The notes beneath the pieces are model-generated. The model searched no databases and had not been told where the DNA came from. It saw only the letters and a list, made by a program, of their open reading frames with translations. A stretch of DNA of 63,190 nucleotides, the filler included. It is 10 parts of 10 records of this genome, joined end to end, with 100 filler letters (N's around TTAATTAATTAA, not from the genome) between each part and the next. Parts side by side here need not be neighbours in the genome. Positions count along the whole stretch, not along the records: positions 31,770 to 45,246 come from SRR7504441_12092; 9 more parts are not named here. One strand, given 5' to 3'. Positions 3,834 to 58,868 of this stretch are shown one piece after another (the stretch's first letter is position 1; each line of letters opens with the position of its first letter). A program made the position numbers and the translations under genes.

Positions 3834-3923
3834 GGGACAAGGGCCACTCCATCCTCGCTCAGTTAGACGCTCGCTCACGGCAACAACCCCATCCCGTTGG
3901 ATTTTTCTTCATTTCGTGGGGCG

Positions 3924-9900: not shown

Positions 9901-12900
9901 ACAAGGCCAACTATCAAGCAAAGTTCACCTCAGGAATGGCTGCTGTTGCTGCCGAGAGCGAACTTGGGGAGGCCCTCGAAGGCAGGGCTGCCTCGGCAGC
10001 AACTGCACGCTCTGAAGCAATAGCCGCAGCCAGCACTACGCTGCGCCTCGCGCTCGAGAGTGCTAGCCGAAAGCTCGACAGAACGCGCGAAAAGCACCAG
10101 CGCAGGCTTCTTGGCATGCTCAGGGCGCATGGAAAGATAGGCAGGGTTAGAGTGAGCACTGCAATGCTTCAGTCGTCCTTGAAACAGTTGGCAAAGACGA
10201 AAGAGCTCATCACCCAGGTTGTCAAGGCATCTGATCAGGATCTGGGAGAAGCCTCAGATGCCGATATGGCGACTGCCCAAGAGCACTTGCAGGAGTCGAA
10301 CAGTATCGTCAAGCAGTCCAAGGACGCACTGCAGGCTGTCCTTGGCCTGCAAATCAAAAGTTCAGCCCAACTGCGCGACGCCAAGGCGAGGCAAATGCAG
10401 GCCCAGTCAACCTTTAAGCAGTTCCAAGGGGTAGCAAACCAGGTCTGGACAGCCCATCTACAACGAGAAGGTCGTTTATATGAGCTCCAAGGTAAGGTGA
10501 GCGAGACCAAGCACCGAGTAGCACTTCTTAATAAGCACAAGGCGCAGGCCACAGGGCAGCACATACAGCACCTGACAAGTATTGCACAGCCAGTGGTAGC
10601 CTTACGACCAATTCTTGGGGCTGGGTTGGTGACCATGGCTGTGCCAGCTATTCCATCGCAGATTATAGCGCTGAAGCCAACTATGGTGAACACGGTGGTG
10701 TTGGTCAAACCAGTGGCTTGTGACGAGACAACAATGCAGGGCAGCTACTTCCTGCGAAGTGACTTCTCTGCGGCTGCAGAAGCGCATGGGCACTCTCCAA
10801 AGGGAGTGATCGAGAGTCCAGCATTTGTTGTGGGAAGCGGTGCTAGTCTGTCATTCAAGGTTGCAGGGGGCAGTCATCAGTGGAGCGGGGGCAATCAAGT
10901 TGCGATGGTTGGATGCAACTCACATGCACACGCTGGCATCACGGCAGTGTCGCTCGAAAAGCTCTATGCAGGCTCCTGGGTTCGAATCATGTCTGCATCT
11001 GGGGAGGACAGCTCGAGTTTCAGGCAGGTCGACTGGGACCTGAATGCATACAGTGGGGATACGCTCCGGCTGCGAGCTTATGACCTGGCCCATGGCGCAT
11101 GGGGTTACATTGCACTAGACGACGTGAAGATTGAGGGTTGTCGGGCTGCAGAAAGCGGTGAAGGAGTGATTAAGCTTGACAACCCAGCTACAAGCACGCT
11201 CGATGGAAACGGCACTCGCTCGGGTGGAAAGGCTTACACAGTGCAGTCGAACAACATGCAGCTTGTGTACAATATGCTGGCGGATCATCATGTCGACAGG
11301 GTCCGAATTCTCGCAGGTGATGATGAGAATCTGGAGATCAATGTAGCATGGTCTGATCATGTTGCTGGCCCATGGAACGCCATCGAGCCACCAGACTTAG
11401 CGATCAACAAGGGCGCCTGGGGGACTTTTGACACATTCAGCGTGCAAAGAGCGCAATTCTGGCGGGTGCAAGCACAAGGACCAAGTACAGCACAGGTGAT
11501 CTCGTTGCGTGAAGTCGAGTTCCATGGCAAATCCGGCCAGTTAGCCTCCCCGGTAGACAGTTACATAAGGTACCCAGCAAAGGAGCTTACAGGGACACCG
11601 ATCTGGCAGCAGGAGACCACACTGGAGCGCTGTGCTGCCCTGTGCAACGCGCAGGCCAACTGCAAGTCTTTCAACTACCATTCTGAATGTACCCTCAACT
11701 CTGCTGACCAAATCTCAGCACCTGGAAATTTGATAGACTCAGAGCAAGAGTATTTCGAGAAGGCTGCCAGCAGGTGGCAGTCTGGCAAACTCCAAGCCTG
11801 CGAGAGGCATTTGTGTCCGTTGGATGGCAAGTGCAGCGGGCGGGGCAAATGTGACACAAAGACAGGTCGGTGCAACTGCAATCAGAACTCCTATGGTGAC
11901 CACTGCCAGTTCCTCAAATGCCCCGGCGAAAAACGAGTAGTTCTGAGGAAGTCGAACCCAGAAGTGTGCAATGGGATGGGCCGCTGTAACCGGCGGACTG
12001 GCAAGTGCCGCTGTGTTGAAGGCCGAAGTGGACCTGGCTGCAACCACCGCAAATGTCCAGGTGGATGCACACGAGCATCACAGGGTACCTGCCACCCCGA
12101 CGGCACCTGCACCTGCAAAGCAGGATACCACGGTAAATCGTGCAGCCGGAGGTCATGTCCTGAGGACTGCAATGGCAAGGGTCAATGCGACTCTAATACT
12201 GGCAAGTGTGTCTGCCAGCCAGGATACAGTGGCGCTGAATGCGCGGCGGACAAGCCATGCCAGTCTCTAGTGATGAACTGGTGGGATTCCTTCAATGTGC
12301 GAGGCTGGTCCACTTGTCCTCAGTCGTCACTCCTAACTGGACTCTATATAGACAGCCAACCGTGCCATGGACTGTACTGCATTGAGATGGCCCGTTGCTC
12401 GGTGCCTTGTGCAGGCGCCAAGCAGAGGAATATAGGCAGCTGTTATGTGGCTGACTGGACAACTTCGATGTCAGAAGAAGGTTGGTCCAAGTGCGACACA
12501 AACTATTTTCTGCAGGGATTTTACAGGGAAGCCTGCCACTCGCTCTACTGCTTAGAGAGGGCCAAGTGCTGTCAAGTTGACAAGGCTGAATGGAACGACT
12601 GTGAGCATATCAATTGGGGTGGCGCTTTCAGCCGTGAAGGCTGGGCGCACACCAGTGGCACCGGGTTCCTCACAGGAATGTTTAGGACTGGTTCCAAGTC
12701 TGACTCAGGTAATGGAATCAACCAGATACAGCGGGCCTCGCAATGCCACTTCAGACAGCGCCCACGGCAAGTTGTCTGTGGGGACGGGCTTCGAGAGGAT
12801 AAGGAAAGTTGTGACGATGGGAATGGGCAGGATGGAGATGGTTGCTCGAGTGAGTGTACTGTGGAGCATGGCTGGCGCTGTCGGGATCTGGACATTCCGT

Positions 12901-15828
12901 TGGAGGTATCTGGGGCACAGTCCTCGACAGGAAATGCTGTCAAGCTGATTGGTGGAGGGCTTGGAGCTGGCAAAAAGTACTACACTGACCAGGCATTTAC
13001 CATCAAGGCCACTCCAGTTCTCGGAGGAGCGACTACAATCGCGACTGCAGATGCCGACAAGACCGCTGACTGGACACTGCAGTTTACTGTAAACCAATTA
13101 GTGCATCTTTGGGTCCTTGTAGACAGCGCTACTCTAGCAGCCAATAAGGGCACGCCTGCCTGGCTCAAGGGCACATTCAAGCGAACATCGCATGAGATTC
13201 CAGTCACAGGGCGTGGCCAGGCTGCCAAGTTTGTGGTGTTCCAGTCCAAGCACCAACACAAGGGCGATATCAGCATTGGTCCAGCACCAGCGCAGACCCA
13301 GTCTGGGGCCAACCACATTGTGGCTATCACCCGGGCTGCGTGTGACCCAGTAGTGCCATACCGGAAGGGCTCGGCCAAGCTAATGAATAAGATGCGATAC
13401 ACCGAGCTCGAGGACCAGCTGCGGCAAGGGAAGGCTGTGTGTGGCGAGGGATACCACGTATGCAACTTCCAAGAAGTGACCATTCATGGAGTGATTCACA
13501 GAGAAACTCTGGCAGGCGGAAGAGGCTGGATTGTAGGTGGATTTCCCAACTCTGATAGCAACCGGCGGGCCATCTGGAGTGGCCAAGACAGCACCCAGTG
13601 CCGACAGTCTCAAGCGCCTCGCTGGTGGGGCAAGTGGGGACCATATACTGGTCGAGTGCACTGCACGAATAAGAACCACAGGGACCGAGTGGCGTGCTGC
13701 TCAGATGCCCCCGCCCGAGTAGAGGCAGCGGTTAGATTGCAATATCCCAAAGTGCCGTACACGAGCCTCAAGGCGATGTTGGACCGTGACTGGCAGCATG
13801 GCAATTGTGGGACTGGCTGGCATGTGTGTAATTACGCAGAGGCCTCTATCTACGGCGCCATGCTGGGTCACACATTCAAGGGTGAGCAGCATGCTTGGAT
13901 TGTAGGGGGCGTGGGCACCTCCGAGAAGCCAAGCCGGTCTGTGTGGAACGACCAGTCCTCGGGCTTTTGCCGATCAGGCCGCTATCCAGCCTGGTGGTCG
14001 AAGTTTGAGAACTATCATGGAGCGGTGCATTGCTTTGACGGATCCTCAGTCCAGTTCCCTACTGCTTGCTGCAAGGACAGGAGACAGCTGCCTGCGAGTA
14101 GGCACGCTCATTTGGTCAAGAAGGTAGGCCGGCTGCGGTACAATGAGTTGGAGCATCTGCTCAACAAAGACTGGAAGGGCGCTCGAGCCTGTGGACCAGA
14201 CTGGCATGTGTGCAATTACCAGGAGGCGGTTGCCTATGGCAGCTACATGCACGCGAGCTTGGGCGAGTCAGCTTGGCTGGTGGGTGGATTCTCCAACTGG
14301 GCTCCTCACAGACGTTCTCTTTGGAATGGCCAAGACTCGACCCAATGTGATCACAAGAGGGCCCCGCTATGGCACGCTGGCAAGTGGGGGCCATACTTTG
14401 GCCAAGTTCGCTGCGGGTTGGCCAGCGATAAAGCGCCAGTGGCCTGTTGCCGGAATGCCGGGTTTCCAAGTAAGAGCATTGGGGAGAGCAACATTGCCAA
14501 ATATGCACAAGTCACCACTTCAAGTACACTACGAGCTGATGGGGCTGAAAAATTGGTAGACGGCGAGACCGAATTCAGTGCTGAGGGTAGCTGGTCCGTC
14601 TCGCAGCCAGTGGGCCAGTATGCTGTGTTCGACTTTGGTGCGCCTGTGGAGATTGTAAACATCATAGTCTACAACCACCACGACATCAGTGGCACAGATG
14701 TCAAGAGCCTTACTGTGCAAACCTCGAACGATGGAGTTGCTTGGCAAACTCTCAAAGCAGACCTGCCGCTGTTAGACAGTGGTGGCAGCTCGCCTAATCC
14801 AGGGCAGCCACTGTACCTGCTCGAGACAGCCAGGTTTTGGCGGGTTGAAATCACAGCCGTGTTCGATTCGACCCAGGGCAGTAGCGGACTATCAGAAGTG
14901 CAGCTATTACAGCAAGGCAGAAGCACCGCGCTCGACTTGTTTGCAAAACATTCGGGGCATGGGTTGCTACCGGAAGTATACTCAACTTTGACTGAGCAAG
15001 GCCCACTGCAGTGCAGCGATCACTGTGCAATAGATGCCACTTGCAAGGCATTCAATTATAAGGCCTCAAGCCGCGAGTGTGGCCTGGCTGCTAAGAACCG
15101 AAACGGCGGTGCTGGCTATGCTGCAAATGCTGAGTATGACTACTATGAGAAGATAGTGGACGTGCATAGTTCTGGGTACTGCGAGTTTGATATGAGTGAC
15201 TACCGGGGTATGGAGAGTGTGACCAAATCAGGCACGAGCTGCCAGCGGTGGACTGTGCAGCTGCCTCATCGACACAGCTTCACTCCGGAGCGCTACCCTG
15301 GGCGTGGACTTGGAGAACACAACTATTGTCGCAATCCAAACCAGGATCCGAAGGGTGCCTGGTGTTACACCACCTCGACGACAAACCGGCAGGAGTATTG
15401 TGAAATTGCCAGGGATACCGAATGCCCAGTGACGTACTCGGCCAATATCAAGGGGAATGGAGGCAACGGGAAGCGGACCCCTGAGCTACAGATACACTCA
15501 GAGACTGGTGGGGTCAATGCACGACTCGAATCTCGCCACTGCAGTACGCCACATGAGGTTTACCTGGAGTTGCGTACCCAGAGGCACAGTCAAAGTTGGG
15601 GGATAGGCATGAACGATGACCTCAACCTGTGGATATGCTATGGTCGCTTGGGCACAATGAACAAAGATAAGTGTGCATTGCGAATAGAGCCATCAGGTAC
15701 GGTCCACATCCTAGGATACTCGGCATTTATGGCCAACACCCAACTTTTGGCACGCGAGGAACTTGCTGAAGCACAGACAGAGCCACTCCTGATGCTGCAG
15801 GAGACATGCACAGTGACAGTGTGTGGCT
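3924..15828 (+). CDS. Giant secreted mosaic protein (>3960 aa, 3' truncated): coiled coils, FN2-like, tenascin-type EGF, PAN/apple, LamG, F5/8 discoidin, Myxococcus Cys-rich repeat, kringle and unnamed repeats
   Basis: Single stop-free frame. Signal peptide MARPRTGLVVVVAVGLWLLATSSG; CALPF..TFEECT..RPWC (FN2); CSGHGSC and CNGKGQCD (EGF); TLEVWLRP..HLVATFD..LYRNG (LamG); CGDG..ESCDDGN..DGDGCS (Cys-rich repeat); YRG..CQRW..NYCRNP..WCYT (kringle). Confidence 0.9.
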
Positions 15829-15928
15829 NNNNNNNNNNNNNNNNNNNNNNNNNNNNNNNNNNNNNNNNNNNNTTAATTAATTAANNNNNNNNNNNNNNNN
15901 NNNNNNNNNNNNNNNNNNNNNNNNNNNN

Positions 15929-28719: not shown

Positions 28720-30330
28720 TCAACCGGACGATTTCTTGAACCTCTTGAGCGCCTTGAGCACCTTCTTATCCCCGGCCTGCTCGCTCTCGCGCTCCTCGCG
28801 CGCCTTCCGCTTCTTGTCCATCGCCTCCCTGATCATCTCCCGCTTGGCATCCACCACGTTGTGCTGCTTGTTCAGAAACCGACGCATCGCCGTGCTCCTA
28901 CCGCGCTGCCGCCGGCGGGCCTTGCGCTCGAGCTTGCCGGCCTCGAGCGCCGCCTTTCGCTCCTGATACTCGGCCTCCAGGATCTGTTTAGAGGCCCGGT
29001 CTACAGTGCCCACCTTCTCCGGATCGAGCTGAATCAGCTCGGGGGCTATCTTCTCGAGCAGCTGGTGCACCTCGCCCTCCCGACGCTGCTTTGAGGTCTC
29101 AAACGGATTGGCCTCGAACGTGTCGAAGTTCGGCTCGCCCGCTCCCGGGATGATCAGACTGCTCCAGCCCTGCTCGTGACCCACCCCTAGCACGTCGTCG
29201 AACGGGCAGAAGTGCATGTCGCGCACCACCGGCCCAGACAGCTCGTGCCGCATGTACGGCGCCCGCTGCTTCCGGTTGAGCGCCTCCTTCCACACCTCCA
29301 CGTGCGAGCCGAACCCCAGCCCGAGCAGCCCACGCTGTGATATGTCCACAGAAGCGACCGGCAGCTTTGTCTTGTACGAGTGCACGATTTTGAACTTGCG
29401 GACGTCCCAGATGTGCGTCTGAGCGTCCAGGCCGCAGCTGGCCATGTACCGGCCTGACAGGTCAAAGCTGAGCCCGGAGACTGGCCCGCGGTGGCATAGC
29501 ATTTTGACTACTGGCGTGTTGAGGTTTGGGGTCCACATGGAGCATGTGCCGTTCTGATGCCCAAGCGCGACCACGGCGTTGTACGGGTTCTGGCCCATGG
29601 TGTCGCACCCGCCCAGCCTGGTCCGGTGCTCGGCGATCATTTTGCCAGTGGAGGTATCCTGGTACTTTAGGTAACCGCCGTTGCCCACTGTGGCTAGCAG
29701 GAAATGGTAAGGCAGGAACTCTAACCGGGTGACGTCAATGTGGTTGCGCAGGCAGTGCAGCTCCATCCCGGTGCTGTCGTAGATATACGTGTACTTCTTC
29801 TGGGCCACCGCGAACATTTGCTCGTTGTGGAGGAATTTAACATCCCGCACCGTCTCCTTGGCCTGGAATTCTGCCTTGATCAGCCCCTTGCCCCACTCCA
29901 CCAGCGCCACGTGGCCCTTCCGCCCGCCCAGCAGCAGCGACCGCCCGTTCCGCGAGTAGTCGAAAGTGTACGGCCCGAAGTCCGTCAGCCGGAGCTCGAA
30001 GGCCTTGCGGGCCGCCTCCACCACCACCGCGTTCTTGATGTCCTTCTGCTTGAACCGCTGGGTCTGCTCCATCCCCTCGGCCTCCAGGTACCCGGCCTGC
30101 TCCGGCAGCAGCATCTCCGCCATCCCCGCCGTGGTCGCGGCCGTCTCGGCCATCTTCTCTGCCCGGGCCAGCTTGGCCTTCAGCTTCTTGTCCCCCACTG
30201 CCCGGAGCTTGTTCTCCGGCCCGCGACGGTACTTGCGGGCCCGCGGGTCAGCAGCCGCATCCGGCTGGCTGCCCGGGCTCTTGCCACCCCCGCGGCTCTT
30301 GCCTCCCGTGCCAGAAGACGGCTTGCCCAT
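28720..30330 (-). CDS. WDR46: WD-repeat protein 46 / Utp7 (SSU processome component)
   Basis: YSRNGRSLLLGGRKGHVA, FAVAQKKYTYIYD, EFLPYHFLL, IPGAGEPNFD..EANPFET (BING4CT domain). Start MGKPSS at 30330. Confidence 0.95.
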   Translation of the reverse strand: MGKPSSGTGGKSRGGGKSPGSQPDAAADPRARKYRRGPENKLRAVGDKKLKAKLARAEKMAETAATTAGMAEMLLPEQAGYLEAEGMEQTQRFKQKDIKNAVVVEAARKAFELRLTDFGPYTFDYSRNGRSLLLGGRKGHVALVEWGKGLIKAEFQAKETVRDVKFLHNEQMFAVAQKKYTYIYDSTGMELHCLRNHIDVTRLEFLPYHFLLATVGNGGYLKYQDTSTGKMIAEHRTRLGGCDTMGQNPYNAVVALGHQNGTCSMWTPNLNTPVVKMLCHRGPVSGLSFDLSGRYMASCGLDAQTHIWDVRKFKIVHSYKTKLPVASVDISQRGLLGLGFGSHVEVWKEALNRKQRAPYMRHELSGPVVRDMHFCPFDDVLGVGHEQGWSSLIIPGAGEPNFDTFEANPFETSKQRREGEVHQLLEKIAPELIQLDPEKVGTVDRASKQILEAEYQERKAALEAGKLERKARRRQRGRSTAMRRFLNKQHNVVDAKREMIREAMDKKRKAREERESEQAGDKKVLKALKRFKKSSG

Positions 30331-30394
30331 CTCCGAGCTTCTTTGCGGTCGAGGCCGCGCGGTGCCGTTGCTGAGGTCGCCCGCACCGGTGCTG

Positions 30395-30939
30395 ATGTGG
30401 CGCCGGCTGGTGGGCTGCGGGCTGCAGGCCGGCGGGCGGCTGGGCCCTGCGCGGGCAGCACCGTGCGCGTCAGCGGCGCAGGCGGGCTGGGTGACGGTCC
30501 GGTTCGTGGAGCAGGACGGGACCGAGTTGGTGTGCCGGGGGAGCGCGGGGACCGATCTGCTCCAGCTGGCCTGGGACAACCAGGTGGAGCTCGAGGGAGC
30601 CTGCGAGAAAACCGTCTCCTGCTGCACCTGCCACGTGTACATCCAGCCCGAGTTCGCCGGTCAGGTGCCCGGCCGGCCTGGGCTGGCGGGAGGGCCGGCC
30701 AGCTGCCGGAGCCGGACGAAGACGAGTTGGACATGCTCGAGCTGGCCGACAACCTGGAGCCCACGTGCGCGGGAGCGGGGGGGTGGGCGAGTCGGGGGGG
30801 CAGCTCGCGGCTGGGCTGCCAGGTGCTGCTGGAGCCTGGGCTGGACGGGATGACAGTCACCGTCCCCAAGGAGGTGTGCCTACCCGGCTATACAGCTGTA
30901 GCTCCAGATAGGCGCTGAGACCCGGGGCAGGACTGGTGA
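30395..30939 (+). CDS. Mitochondrial adrenodoxin-type [2Fe-2S] ferredoxin; 2-3 introns
   Basis: Arg-rich presequence; LEGACEKTVSCCTCHVYI|LPEPDEDELDML..PT|SRLGCQV. The last exon is uncertain. Confidence 0.9.
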
Positions 30940-40200: not shown

Positions 40201-40498
40201 ATTGTCTACATTATTTAAATAGATCTTGTATCAAGAAGGATATAGGTACACTTTAGGTACACTCATTCGTGAAGTCGAGCCTAGGCCACATATTAACCGG
40301 AGGTCTTGTATTAGTCTTGTATAAAGAAGGAGATTGCATTGATTGTCGTGTGGCCAAGTGGGCACAGGTTAGCTCAAAACAGCGTAACTGAAAAATCGAG
40401 AGTGATGTATATACATGTACATGACTTGTACACTGTCCACAATCATGATCATAGCTATAATAAAGTCTTCGATTTGAAAATCATCGCAGTGCAGAGAT

Positions 40499-43018
40499 CT
40501 ACTGGTAATCTACTGGAACTTGAAAGAAATCTCGGGCATCGGTCATGCCTTGGAAGCGCAATGCACCATCGAGTACCGACCCGTCCCAGCAATCAATGTA
40601 CTCGCAATGTCGCGACAGTTCAGCATTGCTCATCAAACAACTTGCTTCCTGCCAGAGCACGACCTGCGATCCTAGAGCCGGCCACTGCTCACACAACTTG
40701 AGCAGCTCCTCGACGGCAGAACTCTCGGTCTCGCCATGCGCCTGCTCCATGAGCACACAGTCCTGCACTGCACTCACAAGAAACTTGTGGTTGAACAATC
40801 TGGCCGCCACAAGCCCAGAACGAAAACCAACGCCGCAGAGAACACACACCGGTGCAGGCAAAATGCAGAGAGATGGCACCCGCAGAGTCCGACACCAGTT
40901 AGTGAGTGACTGTCGGACCTCCACTGAGAAGCTCAGTTCCATGGGCTCTGCAATCAGCACTGGGAACTCTGCAACTGTTGTTGAATCGTGTGGATATGCT
41001 CGTACCCTGCTGTTGTGACCGACAAACTTGTCAATTCCCCAACCAATTGCTGCCGAGTACCCCTCAGCGTCCACGGTACACAACCCAGCCTCGTCGAGCT
41101 GGAGCACTTGGCGTGCCTTTTTTACCCCCCGATAGTGTGTATCCCCAACCTCATCGCCGACCAGATGTTGCTTCAGCCCTGAGCCTGCGCCCCAGAGGTG
41201 GCCCATGGATCTGGCGACCAGTGCGGGGCATTTCTTCCTCCGGAGCTCCTTGCCATCGAACCAGCCAAACTCCATGTCAGTGAACCCGACGTGGAGACAG
41301 AGTGGCTGGAAGTATAACTCGGCGATCCGGCGGGCTCGATAGCGGGCATACCAGTCCACAAGATGAGGCGGGACCTTCACCCTGATTCCACCACGACACG
41401 CCCTAGATTTGGCCATCTGCGTATCAACATGGAGCCGCTGGATCGTCATCTGCATGTGCGACACAAGCGCCTTCGCGCCATAGGCGGCCCAGTAGTCTCT
41501 GCTCTTTTTGAGCTTGACAACCTTAGGCTCGGACCCAGGGCTGAGCGTAAGCGTGAACCCTTCGCAAGTCTCTTGGCCATATTGGCTGGTTCCGCGATCC
41601 ACCAGCAGCTCCGACTCGGCGGTGAGCTCCCACTTCAGATCGTCTGCGGAGAGCAACTCGTCGTCCGCCGAGAGTTCTGTGGGCGCAAAATGAACCGTTT
41701 CTTGGCTCATCTCGAGCCTACCAGCGACATCAACAAACAGCACCTCCAACTCCACACTTATTCCTTGCTCAAACTCGTAATTAGCAAGCGCAGGAGCCCA
41801 CTGGCTAGCCTTGGAGGGCAAAAGCCTGAAATCAGCCGGAGAAAGTGTTTGCTCCAAACCAATATTTGCTCCCCACCGCTGGTAGAATAGCCCCGACCAG
41901 GGCTCACCATCCCTGGCCACCTGGCACCACGTGATAGACACCTCGGACAGCATGTTTAGCTCTCTCGGCCCGAGCCACCCAAGTAGATGCATCAGCATCT
42001 GGAGCGGCAGCGCGGGACTCCAGCTGTCTCCAAGTTCGAGCCTGCGCTCGTGCAGCAGTGAGGGCAGTTCTGCCTGGATCTCCATGGCTGCCAAATAGCT
42101 CTGGGTCGACTCGGCCGGCCGACCTTGCTGTTGCTCGTCAATCGACTGCTGGTACAGTCTTTCGGCTTCAATGTATCGAGGGTTGTCACGGTAAGAAGGC
42201 TGGAGCGCTCTCATCGGAGTGCATCGCTCAAACATGATGTCGCTCCGCAGAATGTATTTGGTCCCTGACAGCACGGTGCAGCCCTTGTGCAGAGCGTCGT
42301 GATTGAACACCACCGCCATGCCGCGTTTGGGATGCACAGTCACCGGAGGGAACCGAGCCCCATCCGCACCGGAGAGTTCGAGTGCCCCTCCCGTGAATTC
42401 GCCACCGGCACCTTCGAGCAGGGCGCCCGACCCGTGAACACCCGAATCATTCAAGTAGAGTGAGATCGTGTACACCGACCGGTGGTCGTCAGTCACCACG
42501 AATCCGCCGTCTCGGTGCGTCTCAAACTTGCCCCCGGATGTATACTTGGAAAGCCTCACGCACGGGTTTACCCCCACTGGCCGCCACACGCCCTCGTTGC
42601 CGAACCCGTACGGCCGAGCCATCACGTCCTCGCGGGTGAGCACGGGTACGATGCGGGACCAGAGCACCTCGGCGAGCGAGGGGCTCATGGCCACTAGCCG
42701 CTCGCAGTCCCGGTACTCTTTTGCGTACTCCCAGGCCACCGAACTGAACCCGATCTGCTCGGCCTGCTCCACCAGCCAGCCGGCTTCGGCGGTCGAGACC
42801 AGCGAGTCCAGCTGGAAGCAGCGGGCCCCGTTCACCGGCAGGTCGGTGCGGCAGGCTCGGTCGGGCCCGGGGATCTGCTCCGGCCAGGCCGGCAGACTGG
42901 GGTAGTCCGCGATGCTGTAGGCGTGCCGGACCTGCCCGATCATCGCGGGCGGCGGGCCCGGGACACGCGTGCTCGTCGGAGACTCAGTTGCTGGCATAGA
43001 TCTGCCGGAGCCCATCAT
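40499..43018 (-). CDS. Fusion protein: prolyl-4-hydroxylase-like 2OG-Fe(II) oxygenase + F-box + partial actin-like domain
   Basis: FETHRDG..YTISLYLND..FTGGAL..LHKG..GTKYILRSDIMF (oxygenase); LPLQMLMHLLGWLGPRELNMLSEVSITW (F-box); CPALVAR..VGDE..FPVLIAEP..VPSLCILPAPVCVLCGVGFRSGLV (actin-like). Confidence 0.8.
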   Translation of the reverse strand: MMGSGRSMPATESPTSTRVPGPPPAMIGQVRHAYSIADYPSLPAWPEQIPGPDRACRTDLPVNGARCFQLDSLVSTAEAGWLVEQAEQIGFSSVAWEYAKEYRDCERLVAMSPSLAEVLWSRIVPVLTREDVMARPYGFGNEGVWRPVGVNPCVRLSKYTSGGKFETHRDGGFVVTDDHRSVYTISLYLNDSGVHGSGALLEGAGGEFTGGALELSGADGARFPPVTVHPKRGMAVVFNHDALHKGCTVLSGTKYILRSDIMFERCTPMRALQPSYRDNPRYIEAERLYQQSIDEQQQGRPAESTQSYLAAMEIQAELPSLLHERRLELGDSWSPALPLQMLMHLLGWLGPRELNMLSEVSITWCQVARDGEPWSGLFYQRWGANIGLEQTLSPADFRLLPSKASQWAPALANYEFEQGISVELEVLFVDVAGRLEMSQETVHFAPTELSADDELLSADDLKWELTAESELLVDRGTSQYGQETCEGFTLTLSPGSEPKVVKLKKSRDYWAAYGAKALVSHMQMTIQRLHVDTQMAKSRACRGGIRVKVPPHLVDWYARYRARRIAELYFQPLCLHVGFTDMEFGWFDGKELRRKKCPALVARSMGHLWGAGSGLKQHLVGDEVGDTHYRGVKKARQVLQLDEAGLCTVDAEGYSAAIGWGIDKFVGHNSRVRAYPHDSTTVAEFPVLIAEPMELSFSVEVRQSLTNWCRTLRVPSLCILPAPVCVLCGVGFRSGLVAARLFNHKFLVSAVQDCVLMEQAHGETESSAVEELLKLCEQWPALGSQVVLWQEASCLMSNAELSRHCEYIDCWDGSVLDGALRFQGMTDARDFFQVPVDYQ

Positions 43019-43063
43019 AGACCGCGGGAGCGTCTGCGGACAACAGGCAGCCGTTGGTGCAAG

Positions 43064-44730
43064 ATGGCGAAGAAGAAGAAGAAGGGCGCCAAGAAGGCGC
43101 CGGCGAGCAGGGCCAGCAGGCTATCCACCAAGAACGAGGCTGAGCCTGCGGCCGAGCCTGCCACTGAGCCATCCTCCCCGCTGGTGGAGGACGACAACGA
43201 ACTGCTCGAGCTCAACTCGCAGCTCCACCAGATGCAGCAGGTGGCGCTTGCCACCCGGGCTGGCCCACCCCCGGGGGCAGGCGCTGCTCACCTCTCCCAA
43301 GCACAAGCGCGCCGAATTAAAGCACGAAGCAGCCCGGCTCGATTCGCTGGTGTTTGCTCTGCCTGCCGCGCTGAGCTCCGCGGCAGATCCGCCGCAAGCA
43401 CGCACACCGGAAGGAGACCCCTCCCGCCCCGGCGAGCTCTGACCCGAGCCCCATTCCCGACGGGTGCACTTCCAGCAAGCCGGGCTCGGACCACCAGCCC
43501 GGCCAGAGCGCGCCGACTGGCCAGGTCCCGCGGCAGTGTTCAGTGGTGGTGGACGAGCTGCGGTCGGACTTGCGCCCAGCGCTGTGCAAGGGAATGGGCT
43601 TGTCCATGATCTGCACCGGATCCGGCCTTTCAGCGCTGAGACAGGACTGCAGCCGCTCCTCTCTTGAAGCTGTCCGACAGATGCTTTCTACAGACGCCCG
43701 GCCGCTCGAGGTCCACTTCCAGCACCCGAGCTCGCACGCTCTGGTGGCGCATCGATTTGACGAGGTCGGTCCGCTCGGGATTAAGATCGTGGGTTGCGAC
43801 GAGGCTGATGAGTATGAGCCAGCCTCGCCCCGGTTATCGTATCCGGACGAGTATGAGCTGGTGGAGCCAGCCTCGCCCAGGCAGACGCGGCCAGTGCCTG
43901 TCCCTGGTTCCGAGAGGGCGTGGTTCAGAAGCGTACCAGCAGCGGCCGATCGGGCGAGTACCAGGTTACGCAGCATACATCACAAGATTGCGCAGCGGCT
44001 CGGTCACTTGGCCCGAAGTGATTCGTTTGCCACGAGCGCACCGGTGCTTGCCCAGGTGCTAGATCAGAAGGATGTGGTGAGGCAAAGCGGCTTCCCAGAG
44101 ATTCGGCGCATGCGACTCAAGATGAAGCAGATGTATCTCGAGCCGGTGGGCAACGGCTCTGTCTGGCCCATAGTTATGCTTTCGGTGTGCAGGGGCTGTC
44201 CCCCAGGCTGTCTGAGTTGGGCAAGGCGTGTGCGCACAGATTGCAGGGGCTGCAGGACAGCTGGACGGCTGAGCAAGTCGGATCGTGGCTGCAGGCCTGT
44301 GGATGGCCCGACCTTGCCCGCGCGGCAGTGGAGGCCTTACTGGATGGGACGCGTCTGCACGGTGACCAAATTACTAGCAGCTAGTGCTTACTCTTGTGCA
44401 GACGTGCTGCGCTCGAACGATCCACGAGCCAGACTTGCTGGAGCGCTAGGACAAGACATTGACAAATTGCCCGATGATCTGGTGCTGGAGGTCTGCAGGC
44501 TGTTCCATGCTGCTAACGCGGGTGGCCTGTCCACTGAGCCCTCATTGCATTTGATTTGTGTGCGCTTGCAGGTCAAATCCGGCGACTTCAATGCTTTTAC
44601 CGACGTCGCCTAAGCAAGCAGAGGAAACGCGCAGCTGCGAAGAGAGAGGAGTTGCAGATTCGAAAGATCTTAGAGCTTGAGAGTGCTAGTGGTAAGAAAG
44701 TTGAAATGATTGATTGATAATTATACGACT
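43064..44730 (+). CDS. Hypothetical protein with a SAM-like domain and a possible PDZ-like segment; introns
   Basis: MAKKKKKG start; WTAEQVGSWLQACGWPDLA..LDGTRL (SAM, ~44260-44360); RPLEVHF..GPLGIKI. The 3' end is approximate. Confidence 0.5.
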
Positions 44731-50488: not shown

Positions 50489-50588
50489 NNNNNNNNNNNN
50501 NNNNNNNNNNNNNNNNNNNNNNNNNNNNNNNNTTAATTAATTAANNNNNNNNNNNNNNNNNNNNNNNNNNNNNNNNNNNNNNNNNNNN

Positions 50589-53500
50589 TTGTTTAACAAT
50601 GAATGGTTTCTTGGGAGCGACTTGGTCGACATTCTTAATTGTCGGGAGAGTGGTTGGGAGATTTGCAGCTGCCTTGAGATCAGGTGTGCCTTTCTTTGTA
50701 ATGTGATTCGAGGCACTGCCTTCCATTGTAATGCCTTTCGAATCGCCGTTGTATCTCGTGGTATTATCCATGGTATATCCATCGTTGATGATAGCATCTT
50801 GCGCCTTCTTCGTTCGCTTTGATACATAAGTGGAAGCACTCAGCTTCATGGCGGTTTTCGATTTGGTTTGGATCTTTTCTGCCGATGAGAAATCACGCCA
50901 TGGATCAAATTCTGACTGAAACGGGATTCCGAGCACAGCAAGCTGTATGGCGAGCTCACGGAGTTGCCGTTCGCTGGAGCCAGCATCAGCATTGTTGACA
51001 GAAAGCAGATTGACATCGCGTTTATCCTTCAGAATCGACGAGGCTAGCTTCTTAAGGGTGTGCCGAGGCCCAAGCTCCACAAATGTCCGAGCGCCATCAT
51101 CATACATTTGTTTTATTTGTGCGTCGAAGTGTACCGAACTTGTCATGTGCTGGGAGAGAGTCGCAAGGACAGGTGCAGATGTCGAATATGGAGCAGCTGA
51201 TGTGTTGCTGTACACCTGTGGTCCGTCTCCCAGAAGAGCGTCGCCAATCTGAGTCTCGAGGTGCTTTGCAAATGCGTCAGCTGCTGGTTGCATGAGAGGG
51301 GTATGAAACGCATCGCTGACCTTGAGTGGGACCACCCGAAGTCCCCTGCTTGTCAGGACCTTGCTGAAGCTGTGCACTGCTGCTGTGGTTCCAGAAATCA
51401 CAACCTGGGAAGGACTGTTGTGGTTAGCCATCCAGACATCTGTGGGGAAGTCTCCAATTTGGTCTACAGAAGCACCAAGCACTGCTGCCATGGCACCGCC
51501 ACTGGCGTGCTTCTCCATCAGCATACCACGCTGACAGGTGATGTTGAATACTTGATTGTGGTCCAGGAAGGTATTGGCATATAGAGCAGCAATCTCCCCA
51601 AGGCTATGGCCGGCGACAAAATCAGGCACAACCCCAGCAGCCTTGAAAATGTCAAAGCATCCAACAGAGCAGGCCACTGTGGTGAGTTGTGCTAGCTTGG
51701 TATTATTGAGCTGTGTTGCATCAACGGTTTTCTCATCTTCGCTGTGATATTTTTCGCGAGGATATAGCACTTGAGATGGCTGGAACCCATGCTTAGCTGC
51801 AGCTCTGTCCATAGCAGTGAGAGCCTCGCGGAATGCAGGCCAATTCATGGCACACTCGTCAAACATGTTCTTGTACTGTGAACCCTGACCAGAGAAGAGG
51901 AAGGCAAGCTTGCCCTGAGCACTGCGTTGGCGGAAGATCACGCCGTCGGACTCCCAGCTGTCCTTTTGGGGCTCAGCCTGCAGGAGAGCAATGCAGTGTT
52001 CAAGAGCAGAAACGCACTGTTCAGCACTTGTGGCAAGAAATCCTAGACGTGGACCCTCAGCAATCGGGGCTGACAGAGAAAAGGCTTGGCAGAACTCCTC
52101 GAACCCCAAGAGAACAGACTTTGCTTGCTGCTGACAAAGTCCTACAAGTGCAGGGACGTCAGATGCAGACATCACCACTGGAACAGGTAGTGCATGGACA
52201 CGGTATGCCTCTGCATGCTCTGCTTCGTATTCCTCGACAACACAATGATAGTTTGCTCCACCAAAGCCAAATGAGCTGACAGCAGCCATTCTCGGCAGAT
52301 GAGCGCCATCTGAGCCCACGGGTGTAATCCATGGGCGATTGCTAGTGTTGAGATATAGCGGTGAGTCTTGGATGCTAGAGCCATCCCGTAGAACTGGCGG
52401 CGTACTCACATGGATTGTCTGAGGCAGGATCTTGTGCTTGAGAGCAAAGATGACCTTTAGTAACCCAGCACAGCCCGCCACAGCCTTCAAGTGGCCAATG
52501 TTGCTCTTGATGCTTCCTACGGCAACGCGTTCATGGCCAACTCCTTGGAACGCATTCTTGAGAGCTGTCAACTCGATGGCATCCCCAACAGGTGTCCCGG
52601 TGCCATGGCCTTCCACCAATGTGATGGATGAAGGATCCACGCCGGCTCTTGCCCAGGCCCGCCGAATCGCTTGCTCTTGTCCCTCGATCGTTGGTGCATA
52701 GATGCCAGGGGCTCGCCCATCGCTAGATGAAGCACAGCCACGAATCACAGCATGTATCTTGTCGCCATCAGCCTCAGCATCTGCAAGCTTTTTAAGAACA
52801 AACATGACACTGCCTTCACCAATGAGCATGCCACCAGTGTCTTTATCGTATGCTGACACGTTCTGCTTGGTGCTGAATACAGGCGTCTTGGAAAAAGCCA
52901 TAAACATTCCAATACTGCAGTCTGTGCATGTTGCACCAGCAATCATTGTACGGCAGTCTCCATCAAGCAGCTCATTGATAGCGACTTTGATTGCCACGAG
53001 CGAACTGGCACATGCAGCATCCACGACACAATTCATACCATCCAGGTTGAAGACATTTGTGATGCGGCCTGCAGTAACATTCCCTAAGAACCCGGGGAAA
53101 GAGTCAAGCCTCCATTCTGGGAAGTGGGCTTTGTACTTGTCCACAGCCTTTTCGACGTCTGCCTCAGGCATACCCATCTTGCGCAGAACTTTGTCGACCA
53201 CCACGTAATTCAAGCGGGAGTAGAACTCGTTTGAAGACTTTTGGCCACCACCAATGCCCAAAACACAGCCGATATTATGTTTGGTTTTGCCATCAGTAGG
53301 AATACCAGCATCAGTGAGAGCCTCCTTGACCTTCACCAGACTCAAAGTCTGATTCACATCCATGTCTTCAACTTGCAGCATGTTTACATTGAACACTCTT
53401 GGATCGAAATCGAAGGGATCGATAAAACCGCCTCGTGTGCAGTATATCTTGTCTGGCACACGCTTGTCTGGATCAAAGTAGGCTGTCACATCGACACGGT

Positions 53501-53731
53501 CGTCTGGAAGGTCACTGATAGAATCCAAGCCATCACGAATCATCTCCCATGACTCTTTGATTGTACCGCCACCAGGGAGGGCGCAAGAATAACCTATAAT
53601 AGCGATTCGGTTGTCTTGCTCCGGGGGGGGATCCGCAAACCTTGGAAGAGAATTGGCAGAGGGAGATGGAACATGCTGGGCTTGAGGGCCTGAAGCAGTA
53701 GTGGGCTGGCTGGGCTGGATGCTCGGAGCAG
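50589..53731 (-). CDS. pfaA: PUFA synthase (PfaA/OrfA-type iterative PKS) fragment: KS + malonyl-CoA acyltransferase; truncated at both ends
   Basis: RIAIIG, DKIYCTRGGFI, FPEWRLDSFPGFLGNVTAGR, VVDAACASS, EGHGTGTPVGD, KSNIGHLK, SFGFGGANYH (KS); FSGQGSQY, GHSLGE, AFHT (MAT). Closely recalls thraustochytrid OrfA. Confidence 0.92.
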
Positions 53732-54587: not shown

Positions 54588-57500
54588 CTAACTGCTTGAG
54601 ATCGCCTTCAGGTTGGCGTTCTCGGCCTTGAGCGCCTCCAGCTGGGCCATTAGGCTAATATTTTGCTTGCTCTTGGACGCCAGCCGCTTGTGCACGCTAC
54701 TCAATGCTAGCCTGGTAACGCCAGCCTTGGCCTTACCAGTTCGTTCCTCCTCCTTGAACTTGCCAAGCAGCTCGCGCTCCTTGGTCTCTTCGCAGCCTGC
54801 GTTAGCTGCGCACGTGCCCTGGGTGCCAGACTTGACACACATGCTGCCTGCCTGGTTCCTGTTAGAGAAGTTATAGTTCCGTGTACCCATGTAAGAGAAT
54901 CGGCCCGCCTTGCGCATCTGGACTAGCCCACCATCAAAGTACGGAGTGCGCTGCCCAGACTTATCCATCACCGCGTTCAGCTTGGCGCAGTTCCGTGGAT
55001 CTCTCTCTCGTGCATTCTGGTTCAGCTGCTGCAGCGCGTCTGGCGAGAGGCACTGCTGGCCCTGGCCCTGGAGCGATTCCATCTGATTCAAGAAACCAAG
55101 CTTCATTATCGTCTTCTCGTCTGGCTTGCCGTCTGCTCCCCAGAACATTCCTGTATACTTTGTGTTCAGGTTCTTCCAATCCTGCAGTGCCCCGGCAAAA
55201 TAGGCATGCCCTGAGTCCACCGCTGCATGCCGCTGGCCGGCACCACTGTACGCAGCCCCGCTCGGTCGCCGACGCCACTGGATCTTAGGCAAGCTGTCCA
55301 TGTCCACAATATTGCTCCGGTCGGCGCGACGAGCTTGATTCTGGTCAAGGCTGTCCCCACCGCCTTCCGCATCGTTTGGGTTACGTTGTGGGTTGTAGTC
55401 GGAGCCGGTCCACTGGAAGTGCACAAAGTCGTCCTTTTCAATGCACAGGTCGTTAGGTACAAAATCATACTCCACTGCAGGATAGGTCTGCACGATGTTG
55501 CCGCGCTTGCCTCTAACGTTCACATTGTAAATCTTGGCAGTTGCAGGCATATTCCGAGGCCGAGGCCGGATTGCAAACACGTACGAACGGTCTTGGAAGG
55601 TCCGGCCATACTGGTTGGTGTTGACTGCCAGAGAGAGGAATGAAACTGCCGGATTTCCCCCGATTCCCATATACGGATCCTGTACAACCGGGCTGGAAGA
55701 TCTGCCAGACCGAGGATTCTGGTTGTGTTGGGCGTTGGTCATTGGTTGGCCTTCATTGTTCCAAGCAAAGTAGTCTGCTGTTGATATGTTGTATCGCAGC
55801 CGGAGCACACAGTTTTCATTGATGTGCTCAGGCACCTTCCAGATGTATCGATTGGCATTAACTCCATGCGGGATGACCTTTGCCATCTCAGGTCGGTTTG
55901 TGGCCGTGCTGCGAGAGTTGCCGAGGTGATTCTCACGCGCCACCGACGACTGCCCGCCTACACAGTCCACTGTTGGTATCTGCTCGGGCGTCTGGCCCTC
56001 GACAGCAGCCTTGGCCTCCACCTTGGCCTCCGTCTCCACCTTTGTCTCCAGCCAGCTGTCTTCGTCCTCTGTGTCCAGCAAACGGCGGCCACGCCGTGTG
56101 GCTGTCTTGGGGGCCAGTGCCGGGTCACAGTATGACCAGAATGGGGCAGCCTTCTGCGGGGTGCCTGACACTATCTCCGTATTGCCGCCCCATGCTGACG
56201 GATCAGCTGTCTCCAGCTTGCCCACTTTAGCATACAGCTGGCAGCTGCCTGATCCCAAGTGCGTCCAACCAACACAGCCAGCGGTCGTAAAGCAAGCGTG
56301 TGAACACCACGCGGGCCCTGGCTCTTCTTTCACCGTCACATACCGGGTGTTGAATGTACCGCCGTAAGCACGATTTACCGCCGAAAGCTCAGTCAGTAGC
56401 GTACTTGTTGCCTGTGCAAAGACCTTCTGTTGCTGGCCGACCCTGGTTCGAGGCACTTGACAAAAGCACCATGGAGCACCAAAGGTGGTGAATGAGGGCT
56501 GAGCACAAGCTGCAGGGGCATTCGCTAGCGGAGATCCGGTCACCTCGACCACCTCTGACCAGGCTCTGCACTTACAGTCAGGCGTGGCTTGAGTCTGTGG
56601 CTTGACATTGGTGATGTCTTCGTCACACGCTTGAGTGCTGCACAGCTGGTAAGCTGGGTCAGAGGCTCCTCGAGCTTTCATTGGGGCATCAAGTGTCCCG
56701 TCTGGCATTTTAACTCCTACGCCAACAGTTGCAAGATCTTCACCTGTCTTGGAGGTGGCCACCAACGCGGCCTGTGTGTTAGCTGCCAGGGTCTGAGGCA
56801 GTGATGCCACCCACTGATCGCCAGCAGTACCGGTCGCCTTTGCAATCACCTTTCCGTTGAGCCACAGCTGGTTCCCAGCCTGACACACAGCGCTGAATGG
56901 ACTGGCGGGCTGGTAGCACTAAGTTTCACCTCGTTGGAGAGCATGAACGTCCAACTACCGGCCACCTTTGGCCGAATGAAACCGGAAACTCTTCTGAAAT
57001 TGGCATTCACCGGGCCTGCATGCATCAATCAGCTAGTAGACCAAGCGCCCAGCACCTGTCGAAGATTCGCACTTGCAAACTGCATTTGGACTTGGAAACT
57101 TGTAGTCACAAGATCGTGTTGGGGTCTCGATAGCCTTGCAACCCTCGCCCACATCATCCCACGCAGAAGTACATTTCAGCTCGGGGCCCAGAAAACTGCT
57201 TGGGTCACCTTGCCCTTTACAGTACTGGTCACAGGTTTCATAAATTGGAGGCGGCGGTGGAGGCGGAGGACACCCACCGCACGCCCTCTTGCAGTACTGT
57301 TTGTATGGGACTCCGTCAAACGAACTTATCCTTTCACAATTGCTTGTCCTGCAAAAGATGCTTCGATCGAAGCAGCCAGAGGAGCTTTGAAGCAGCTCTC
57401 CAGTTGTACTGTGTGTGGGGTGAGCAGTGATGAGCTCGATGAGTGCGTTGCCTTTGGAGTCAGCAGTGGTAAACTCCACTGGAGCAGCGACGGCTTGCGC

Positions 57501-58868
57501 TTGGATTAGCTGCCCTCGCCCCACTGGCTTACATTGCTCAGGACAACACAGACTGACGTCGTTATTGTACTTCAGATCGGTGCATACTATGGAGGCTTTG
57601 GCGCAGGTATCACAAGCCTCCTTCTTGCCTTGTCCACAGAGCTTGACACCTGCAAAACCAACCCGCTGGAGGCAGCTGTCGCTATTCATGGGCTTGGCCT
57701 CCTTGGTGCCTCCCCCGGACTGGTTCCCATTGGATCCGCTGCCAGGGCCCTTGCAAACGTATCTGAACATACCAAACTGCCGACCTCCATTCGACTGTGA
57801 GTTAAAGACCACAATGTCGGGGCCTCCCCAGCCATCTTCGCCAAGGGCTTTGACACTGCATCCGGCTGGTATTGAGCCTCCCTGTTGCAGGTTGTTCCAC
57901 TGGTAACGGTTTGATATCTTGTACCCTAAATAGGCTGCAGCAGCTACACATTCCTTGAAGTCCTGCACGTGAGAGTACCCGCGAGGACACGGCTCCGGCT
58001 GTTGGCAGGCTGGAGTTTTATCATACCCACACGGGAGGGTTTCCTTGCCAGCAGCAAGGAAGTCGCCGCCCAGAGAGATGATAGCAGTAGCCAGCCCACA
58101 AGTCTTGCCCACACTGCTCCAGGTCTTTGTGGATGGAACACAATCAGACGAGCCTGTAGCATCCTGCACGCACTGCTTGGCAGCCAACTTGTAGCGGTAG
58201 CCATAGGGGCAGCCGCATGCATCGCCTGTCTCGTACGCCCGCCCGCATGATGACATGCCTGCACGGCCGATTCCTCCGAAAAGCACAGCACCCTTGGCCT
58301 CTTTGGAGCTGATTGGTGTACCTTGCACAATCTCATTCCGGAAGCCGCCGTCTGTGGACTGGGTGCGCCTTTTCCAGTCTGTCTGGGCCTGGGCGGTCTT
58401 GGGGTGATCAGCATCCCACCACACCTACACATGACAGATCAAGCCAGGATTAATTACACCCACCGGAGCCCAGACGTGCCCGGCTGCCTCACATTCGTGT
58501 GCCATTGCCGGCCACCTGCCATTGCTGTTGGCAACGTCTGTCTGCAGAAAGTCCGGACTTGGGTGATCCGATTCCTCCTGGGGAGAAGGCATTGCCAGCG
58601 TCTCAACCAACAGCTGACCTCGGCGCCTGCGTCTGCGGGTCTGTTCTTCACCTCTGTTCGTGTTGGTTGCCTGAGCAGAAGTTGGCACACGGCCATAGTA
58701 GCCCGGGCATGTGGGCTTCCTCACAATCTGCTGCTGCCCATAGAAAGTCTTCTGCGGTATGCACTCGCCGCGAGGCTTGACGTTGCTGCTTTCTGCCATG
58801 TAGTATGCACATCGCTCGGGGTTGTTCGTAATCACAGCCACGTCAATCCACGGGCTGGCTTGCCAGTG
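54588..58868 (-). CDS. DD3-3-family protein with a large Cys-rich insert; 3 introns; 5' truncated
   Basis: RCAYYMAESSNV, RENHLGN, CVLRLRYNIST, NTNQYGRTFQDRS, NVRGKRGNIVQTYPAVEYDFVP, FQWTGS, YFDGGL, NFSNRNQ. GT-AG introns at about 58425-58463, 57017-57056 and 56881-56930 join three ORFs. Confidence 0.85.

Follow-up and report, generated by a model that had tools for sequence, protein, structure and literature searches.

A P4H-type oxygenase, an F-box and a reduced actin fold in one marine protist protein: a candidate SCF adaptor of the FbxE type

This analysis concerns one gene in a 63,190-nt stretch of eukaryotic DNA (the window), which consists of 10 parts of 10 records joined end to end with filler between them; the gene lies in the part derived from SRR7504441_12092. 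It is a single uninterrupted open reading frame (ORF) of 839 codons on the minus strand (40499–43018), running from an ATG to a TAG stop codon (40499–40501). The encoded 839-residue protein carries a prolyl 4-hydroxylase (P4H)-type 2-oxoglutarate (2OG)/Fe(II) oxygenase, an F-box and a reduced actin fold. We read it as an FbxE-type F-box protein in which hydroxylation is coupled to the ubiquitination of a client by a Skp1-cullin-F-box (SCF) ligase, or to the turnover of the protein itself, and we put the probability of this reading at roughly 0.55. The initial annotation of the locus, made from the sequence alone, had recognized three domains in one ORF, which turned out to be correct, and had proposed a candidate SCF adaptor. 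With this protein, the FbxE-type family is extended to an uncultured marine protist.

Domains and gene model

The oxygenase domain comprises residues 62–265 (42224–42835; all coordinates of this gene refer to the minus strand), with the Pfam core at residues 156–257 (42248–42553). The Pfam family 2OG-FeII_Oxy_3 matched this core at 34.3 bits (curated cut-off 27; E 4.6e-8), and it also matched all 22 aligned family sequences. The iron ligands of the HxD..H motif, H168 (42515–42517), D170 (42509–42511) and H244 (42287–42289), the 2OG-binding residue K254 (42257–42259), which lies ten residues past the distal His, and R258 were invariant in 22 of 22 sequences, and the same was true for E97, Y102, R103 and R107 ahead of the core. 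The intact HxD..H..K oxygenase that had been annotated at about 42830–42230 (residues 63–263) was thereby confirmed. A basic residue about ten positions past the distal His, here K254, is presumably the one that binds the C5 carboxylate of 2OG, a role that we take from the P4H literature. With every catalytic residue kept, the domain is apparently an active member of the prolyl/lysyl hydroxylase class.

The affinities of the oxygenase were analyzed with a profile of window protein residues 30–334 and 21 short relatives, which was searched against all PDB sequences. At significant E-values, prolyl hydroxylases were found exclusively. The best match was the P4H of Bacillus anthracis (1.1e-9), followed by Chlamydomonas P4H-1 (1.1e-7), human P4H-TM (2.4e-7) and vCPH of PBCV-1 (6.5e-7). 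The HxD..H..K residues of the window protein aligned with their counterparts in the B. anthracis enzyme, including the Lys after the distal His. DdPhyA (6t8m), which the accessible text of PMC7864055 describes as the Dictyostelium Skp1 hydroxylase PhyA, had an E-value of 1.6e-3, P3H1 was not significant (0.08), and the human PHD2 sequence was not matched at E ≤ 10 in this search. Judged from these scores, the oxygenase is nearest to the collagen-type P4Hs and is not an orthologue of PhyA.

An AlphaFold model of residues 30–395, based on an alignment of 63 sequences, was confident (predicted local distance difference test, pLDDT, 89.3; predicted template modelling score, pTM, 0.84), and the domain is predicted to have the double-stranded beta-helix fold of the prolyl/lysyl hydroxylase class. 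A structure search with the model (VIA) among 48,161 PDB representatives yielded Z-scores of 17.1 for a Trichoplax PHD (TaPHD), 16.9 for both Chlamydomonas P4H-1 (Cr-P4H-1) and vCPH, 16.7 for Pseudomonas PPHD, 16.5 for a mimivirus lysyl hydroxylase, 16.2 for P4H-TM, 16.0 for OGFOD1, 15.6 for DdPhyA (root mean square deviation, rmsd, 3.7; 178 aligned residues), 15.4 for LH3 and 15.2 for PHD2. These values from 15.2 to 17.1 are effectively tied, and the modelled structure does not distinguish PhyA from the collagen-type P4Hs. Foldseek placed Cr-P4H-1 first (E 1.2e-9).

Among solved structures, the enzyme domain is most closely related to the collagen-type P4Hs (B. anthracis, 3itq and 5hv0; Cr-P4H-1, 2jig and 3gze; vCPH, 5c5t; P4H-TM, 6tp5), with which it shares the HxD..H motif. 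They stand alone or are proteins of the endoplasmic reticulum or the secretory pathway, whereas the window domain is fused to cytosolic-type modules. It differs from them also in the four invariant residues from E97 to R107, which are specific for the family.

Between two core strands of the oxygenase, the window protein contains a Gly-rich stretch of 15 residues (SGVHGSGALLEGAGG; residues ~192–206, 42400–42445), which was absent from 21 of 21 aligned relatives and at which the model confidence was lower (block pLDDT 72–73). An in-frame GT..CAG intron candidate of 30–70 nt was not found within residues 185–230. A loop insertion or an unspliced intron of very small size could account for the stretch.

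The region between the oxygenase and the F-box is a conserved helical linker (residues 275–324, 42047–42196) that resembles a single hairpin of the tetratricopeptide repeat (TPR) type. It has the alignment consensus AExLYxxSIxLQxxGDPxGSTxAYLxAxExQA and forms two long helices in the AlphaFold model. TPR matches were weak and all of them non-significant (profile positions 243–276, E 0.06–1.7; Pfam TPR_Slam, E 0.13).

The F-box comprises residues 335–382 (41873–42016; LPLQMLMHLLGWLGPRELNMLSEVSITWCQVARDGEPWSGLF) and retains the initial LP, the closing Trp and the hydrophobic heptads in between. An F-box had been proposed at about 42015–41880, and this span was in agreement with the Pfam F-box-like match at residues 336–378. 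The sole PDB sequence match of the whole window protein was the F-box of FBXL5 (residues 337–384, E 0.016). When relatives were scanned singly, the same columns passed a curated Pfam cut-off in 11 of 17 cases, and at E ≤ 0.01 F-box-like was matched by 17 and F-box by 14 of 22 family sequences, the best E-value being 3.8e-15. On the basis of these shared columns, the window F-box appears to be homologous to F-boxes that pass the curated profiles.

The F-box is followed by a lineage-specific insert of about 170 residues (385–553, 41359–41866); in the alignment, most relatives have about 25–35 residues at this place, ahead of the actin fold. A BLASTP comparison with the long inserts in two diatom-type members, P0009 and P0022, was negative (E ≥ 0.33); the insert had no Pfam match and no tandem repeats, and its atlas score of 0.80 is noise. 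A metagenome scan for close relatives with the insert resulted in 44 pattern matches, none of which was a relative. The insert region had no RNA cover. An unspliced intron was rejected as an explanation for the whole insert, as its 507 nt compare with observed introns of 37–40 nt.

The C-terminal domain (residues 555–839, 40502–41356, to the last residue) has a reduced fold of the actin/actin-related protein (Arp) type. The Pfam family Actin was matched by 9 of 22 aligned family sequences (best E-value 6e-19), and its cut-off of 27 was passed by P0005, P0006 and P0012 with 68.4, 39.2 and 29.7 bits, respectively. A family profile built from 34 sequences matched PDB actin with an E-value of 3.2e-28, profile positions 379–673 corresponding to actin residues 2–362. 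The AlphaFold model of residues 541–839 (pLDDT 82.3, pTM 0.82) had the highest structural similarity to Arp4 (Z 20.7, rmsd 3.2, 242 aligned residues), followed by a Leishmania axonemal chain (19.2), yeast Arp4 (19.1), Arp3 (18.8), actin (18.3), crenactin (17.7), Arp8 (17.6) and then MreB, ParM and Hsp70 (17 to 13). All matches of the Arp, actin and Hsp70 classes extended over model residues 28–299. Foldseek matched the model to actins with E-values around 1e-10 (7e-11), and an atlas look-up of residues 550–839 gave MreB/actin-like clusters at 0.89, which is under the line of 0.9 and a lead only. The model predicts that the complete actin fold is present, with both halves. Initially, a degenerate N-terminal half of the fold had been annotated at about 41310–40800; the actin likeness and the degeneracy stood, and the restriction to one half had to be given up in favor of a whole fold at 41356–40502. 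Subdomain 4 is almost absent, 78 actin residues having no counterpart in the family profile.

The nucleotide-site motifs (phosphate-1 DxGS..K, phosphate-2 DxGxG, adenosine GG) were defined with the help of an actin alignment. At the three sites, the window protein reads LHVGFTDME, AARLFNH and LWQEA, and the Asp and Lys of phosphate-1, the DxGxG of phosphate-2 and the GG of the adenosine site are all lost. Across the 22 family members, the phosphate-1 Asp was kept in 16, the phosphate-2 DxG in about 2 and the GG in most. Because of the loss of the nucleotide-binding residues, the actin fold of the window protein cannot be an ATPase, and it is read here as a putative protein-binding pseudo-ATPase. 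The best-conserved C-terminal element of the family is the motif GH(Y/L)WxAGSG (residues 606–614, 41177–41203), at the position of the actin D-loop region. The window protein shows how far an actin fold can be stripped while GHxWxAGSG is retained.

The start codon of the gene is uncertain. The candidate starts M1, M2, M8 and M26 all precede the first conserved residue (~42), and the homology to relatives begins at about residues 42–50. The GC content at third codon positions (GC3) declines from 0.95 at the 5′ end to about 0.52 at the 3′ end. Nevertheless, GC3 was higher than the second-position value (GC2) in every 60-codon interval, the insert included, which is the pattern expected for a sequence that is coding throughout. 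Metatranscriptome contigs from four marine runs of four studies matched 40285–41090 with 0–3 differences per piece and without any joint; the match spans the stop codon and has a 7-base hole at 40599–40605. Among the same contigs, near-identical ones were not found for 41091–42223 or for most of the 5′ half, a gap that speaks neither for nor against transcription. The RNA match shows that the 3′ end sequence occurs in RNA libraries and is unspliced there, no more. Matches at 43061–43100 were discarded as lysine-codon low complexity with both ends loose, and a 36-base piece with 3 differences at 42224–42259 was discarded as well.

A divergent neighbouring gene is located on the plus strand at 43065–43420, and its protein begins with MAKKKKKGAKK.... 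It contains two GC-rich GT..AG introns at 43241–43280 (40 nt) and 43350–43386 (37 nt), and one poly(A) metatranscriptome contig skips exactly both of them, with flanks that match with 0–2 differences. Its ATG at 43065 is only 46 bases away from the ATG of the studied gene (43018), and therefore, either the 5′ ends overlap or the studied gene truly starts at a later Met.

A three-block family and Dictyostelium FbxE

An exhaustive search of a library of 1.84 billion representatives with the window protein retrieved 3397 proteins at E ≤ 1e-3, of which 133 had E ≤ 1e-30; a word-indexed search with the whole protein gave 2 matches. Profiles of the individual blocks were cut from the 22-sequence alignment and run on the window protein and 151 retrieved relatives. 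The oxygenase block was present in 152 of 152 proteins, the F-box in 104, the actin-like block in 89 and all three in 80. The fraction with all three was higher for proteins of at least 650 residues (69 of 89), and it was 58 of 130 for proteins outside the profile building (47 of 67 among the long ones). In 78 of the 80 cases the order was oxygenase, F-box, actin-like; the other two were due to a stray F-box match that overlapped the oxygenase start.

The window protein (P0001), which is itself among the 22 sequences behind the profiles, scored 1.3e-79 for the oxygenase, 1.2e-24 for the linker, 3.4e-19 for the F-box and 1.6e-57 for the actin-like block. It carries the family motifs WEY..YR...R, AExLY..SI.LQ..GD and GH(Y/L)WxAGSG, and they follow the block order of the family. 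Two relatives, P0005 and P0006, exceeded the curated Pfam cut-off of each of the three domains. Named members include the chytrid fungi Rhizophlyctis rosea and two Nowakowskiella, the Amoebozoa Pyxidicula operculata and Amoeba proteus, the diatom Odontella aurita, the centrohelid Pterocystis, and Ancoracysta twista. In the transcriptomes of Ancoracysta, Pterocystis, Amoeba proteus and Pyxidicula the members are single ORFs. The EukProt entries are ORFs on single assembled transcripts, labelled 'type:complete' where the printed name shows it. Transcripts that show separate genes, initially named as the result that would speak against a fusion, were thus not seen in these relatives, and this applies to the relatives, not to the organism of the window.

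Additional domains were observed in two members. P0008 (Pyxidicula) has an N-terminal NADAR domain (residues 223–301) with 34.7 bits, just below the cut-off of 35.1, and one other aligned family member has an N-terminal Macro domain (E 8.7e-8). These additions hint at a link to ADP-ribose signalling in the respective lineages.

The FbxE-type family is of ancient origin, occurs widely among eukaryotes and is essentially uncharacterised. Full-text literature searches, with subscription journals, bioRxiv supplements and unreadable supplement pages outside their scope, did not yield a paper that describes the architecture.

The family is connected to Skp1 by Dictyostelium FbxE, which Boland et al. 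2022 (PMC9485057) list solely in the supplementary Figs. S3 and S4. In the accessible text of its Fig. S3, fbxE has the class 'avsum'. According to the key, a stands for an F-box annotated in UniProt, and v, s, u and m stand for the Skp1 co-immunoprecipitations 9E10 vegetative, 9E10 slug, UOK77 vegetative and UOK77 slug, respectively. FbxE is therefore listed in all four sets, both vegetative and both slug (PMC9485057). Its entry in the column 'PhyA' is 'veg', and the column 'SR/other' is empty. FbxE is unnamed in the main text of PMC9485057, and in none of the searched papers did FbxE occur together with Dictyostelium. The terms prolyl, 2OG, oxygenase, P4H and 'actin related' are absent from the text layer of the supplement, several pages of which have no text. 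A published account of hydroxylase or actin-like domains of FbxE was not found in the literature searched.

Short motifs of the printed FbxE F-box occur in exactly one retrieved relative, P0111, a direct phmmer match of the window protein (E 9.8e-34). All three blocks were recognized in P0111 (oxygenase, E 1.2e-69; F-box, 4.4e-7; actin-like, 1.3e-17), as were the HxD..H..K residues. Its F-box differs from the printed FbxE F-box in one residue, and thus P0111 is FbxE or a very close orthologue. Since FbxE is listed in all four Skp1 co-immunoprecipitations (PMC9485057, supplement), the SCF adaptor that had been proposed for the window protein is the best-supported reading. P0111 agrees with the window protein in the three blocks and their order. 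In contrast to the latter, it is without the 170-residue insert after the F-box, and it keeps the phosphate-1 Asp (IIDIGSE) and the adenosine GG (VITGGF), neither of which is left in the window protein.

Candidate functions

F-box proteins that double as 2OG oxygenases are already known, and they connect the ubiquitin system with the level of oxygen or of metabolites. To this theme the present family contributes a P4H-type enzyme together with a nucleotide-free actin fold. The animal proteins KDM2A and KDM2B (FBXL11 and FBXL10) each combine an F-box with a JmjC oxygenase and lack an actin fold. In the animal PHD-VHL system, hydroxylation makes a degradation signal that is read by a cullin ligase; two separate proteins are involved, again without an actin fold. 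KDM2A/B and PHD-VHL differ from the window protein in enzyme class.

JcdI/Fbxo13 and JcdH of Dictyostelium and TgFBXO13 likewise combine a 2OG/Fe(II) dioxygenase with an F-box, and this type of protein is conserved among protists. According to the accessible text of PMC9485057, JcdI/Fbxo13 has an F-box and an active JmjC dioxygenase, binds Skp1 via the F-box and has an O2-dependent activity; TgFBXO13 is given as an F-box and JmjC dioxygenase protein in a table row of PMC11570480. The enzyme of the JcdI type is a JmjC (JMJD6-like) oxygenase, the F-box is N-terminal to it and an actin fold is lacking, whereas the window protein has a P4H-type enzyme with the F-box on its C-terminal side. The parallel to plant ARP8 that had been drawn for the locus is correct. 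In the accessible text of PMC7562919, ARP8 is identical with SUSA2 (At5g56180), carries an actin-family domain behind its F-box and binds ASK1, the Skp1 homologue. The same source proposes the actin domain as the substrate-recognition part and reports that mutations at G258, K313, G399 and G400 of this domain did not abolish function. The likeness is one of F-box-actin arrangement, and ARP8 is without an oxygenase. A search with the F-box-actin part of P0005 aimed at ARP8 returned the query and one family member only.

We hypothesize that the F-box docks the protein on Skp1 in the SCF ubiquitin ligase, as suggested by homology to FbxE, and that the actin fold would bind a client or partner protein, by analogy with ARP8/SUSA2. 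The oxygenase would hydroxylate a protein residue, most likely a proline, in dependence on O2 and 2OG. The most likely logic would be that one polypeptide couples O2-dependent hydroxylation to the SCF ubiquitination of the bound client; alternatively, hydroxylation might govern the turnover of the adaptor itself. A more specific version, namely a one-polypeptide equivalent of the PHD-VHL logic in which the actin fold holds the client, the P4H hydroxylates it only in the presence of O2 and 2OG and the SCF ligase then ubiquitinates it, is doubtful. If it were true, a direct degradation switch gated by oxygen or metabolites, of ancient origin and unrelated to HIF, would exist in many protists, chytrids and amoebae. 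The family spans several eukaryotic supergroups and has a member in the genetically tractable Dictyostelium that co-purifies with Skp1. Should the enzyme mark SCF clients or gate its own turnover, this would be a second protist oxygen-sensing route beside PhyA-Skp1, and an actin-shaped domain unable to bind ATP would gain a function.

Several points weigh against this assignment. Taken singly, the window F-box stayed below the Pfam cut-offs, both for F-box-like (residues 336–378, E 8.3e-4, 19.5 bits versus 24.3) and for F-box (14.6 versus 20.5 bits), and the window protein alone had no Pfam Actin match at E ≤ 10. Domain profile hits had initially been named as the check for both domains: for the window protein itself the F-box was below the cut-off and Actin gave none, whereas relatives and the family profile matched both. 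The actin identification comes from relatives and from a model for which their alignment was the input. Being derived from the family, the block profiles show that the C-terminal block is conserved, not independently that it is actin. The structure scores leave prolyl and lysyl hydroxylases unseparated (mimivirus lysyl hydroxylase and LH3, see above), and the insert at residues 385–553 is unexplained. The RNA contigs comprise the 3′ ~800 bases only and do not bridge the domain boundaries, and RNA libraries can contain DNA. P0111 may be a close orthologue instead of FbxE itself, and the meaning of 'veg' in the PhyA column of fbxE is our reading of the legend. A specificity for proline and the coupling of hydroxylation to the ubiquitination of a substrate are putative.

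The main rival puts the oxygenase first: the protein would be a free-standing O2-dependent hydroxylase, and the F-box would only place its own abundance under Skp1/SCF control, without any delivery of clients. By analogy with JcdI we regard this as a serious though clearly less probable alternative. It corresponds to the conclusion of Boland et al. for JcdI in the accessible text of PMC9485057, where overexpressed JcdI lowered the O2 level needed for culmination, catalysis was required for this effect and the F-box was not, Skp1 modification lowered JcdI levels, and some Fbxo-type proteins are considered as possible substrates themselves. It is also in agreement with the oxygenase being the best-conserved part of the family, present in every protein. 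However, many of the proteins that lack a block are short fragments (only 89 of 152 have at least 650 residues), and the actin fold and GHxWxAGSG are conserved across supergroups, as would be expected of a module that binds a client or partner. The initial annotation had named Skp1 itself as a possible hydroxylation target. In this case the F-box would tether the P4H to Skp1 as a fused alternative to PhyA, and F-box binding would indeed place the enzyme beside Skp1. Skp1 prolyl hydroxylation by PhyA is described for Dictyostelium and Toxoplasma in the accessible texts of PMC7864055, PMC9485057 and PMC11570480, and DdPhyA was among the structural matches. DdPhyA and TgPhyA belong to the same structural class and share the partner system Skp1/SCF, but they are distant in sequence and have neither an F-box nor an actin fold. 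Because the oxygenase is closer to the collagen-type P4Hs (1.1e-9 to 6.5e-7) than to PhyA (1.6e-3), with no PHD2 match in addition, Skp1 as a substrate was unsupported. Moreover, Dictyostelium has both PhyA and FbxE, and thus FbxE is not the replacement of PhyA there. A hydroxylase directed at Skp1, which would also leave the conserved actin fold unexplained, is quite improbable.

A further possibility is a hydroxylase targeted to the cytoskeleton or an Arp complex, in which the actin fold docks on actin or takes an Arp-like place and SCF has a minor role or none. Arps act as subunits of larger complexes, and the actin D-loop is a contact site in actin filaments. The best structural matches were indeed nuclear Arps and Arp3 (Arp4, Arp3 and Arp8 at 20.7, 18.8 and 17.6), and the most conserved C-terminal motif lies at the D-loop position. 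Nevertheless, Arps, actin and MreB grade into one another in their Z-scores (20.7 to 15), so that no particular Arp class is indicated, and the F-box is conserved in 104 of 152 proteins and FbxE was found with Skp1. We regard this explanation as unlikely, if slightly less so than hydroxylation of Skp1. The least probable alternative is an artefact of the gene model or a decaying gene, i.e. joined genes, unspliced introns or a pseudogene. The insert without relatives, the Gly-rich stretch that no aligned relative shares, the tiny introns in the neighbouring gene, the lack of RNA for 41091–42223 and the lost nucleotide residues of the actin fold would all fit it. Against it stand 839 codons without a stop, the retention of all catalytic and family-specific residues and a domain order that is the same as in transcriptome-derived relatives, together with the codon-position pattern, the lack of an intron candidate around the Gly-rich stretch and an insert too long for an intron of 37–40 nt.

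Other genes in the window

The window also encodes a UTP7/BING4 WD40 protein, a papain-type protease, an OGT-like glycosyltransferase and a ketosynthase-acyltransferase (KS-AT) polyketide synthase. The best match of the UTP7/BING4 homologue (28720–30642, minus strand) was a EukProt transcriptome protein with 71% identity, and chytrids and holozoans reached 54–57%. The exact sequence of the studied oxygenase/F-box protein was absent from a collection of 15 billion proteins. In view of both results, the source organism is poorly sampled.

The polyketide synthase is a type I fragment in a 1000-codon ORF (50541–53543, minus strand) with a ketosynthase, its C-terminal extension and an acyltransferase. 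Two long ORFs without Pfam matches (54588–56888 and 57033–58424) on the same strand are reported just downstream of it. An uninterrupted ORF of 3995 codons (3897–15884, plus strand) codes for an extracellular protein that is very large by protist standards, a mosaic of the adhesion type with Laminin_G_3, two PAN, teneurin-like EGF, F5/8 type C and Kringle domains.

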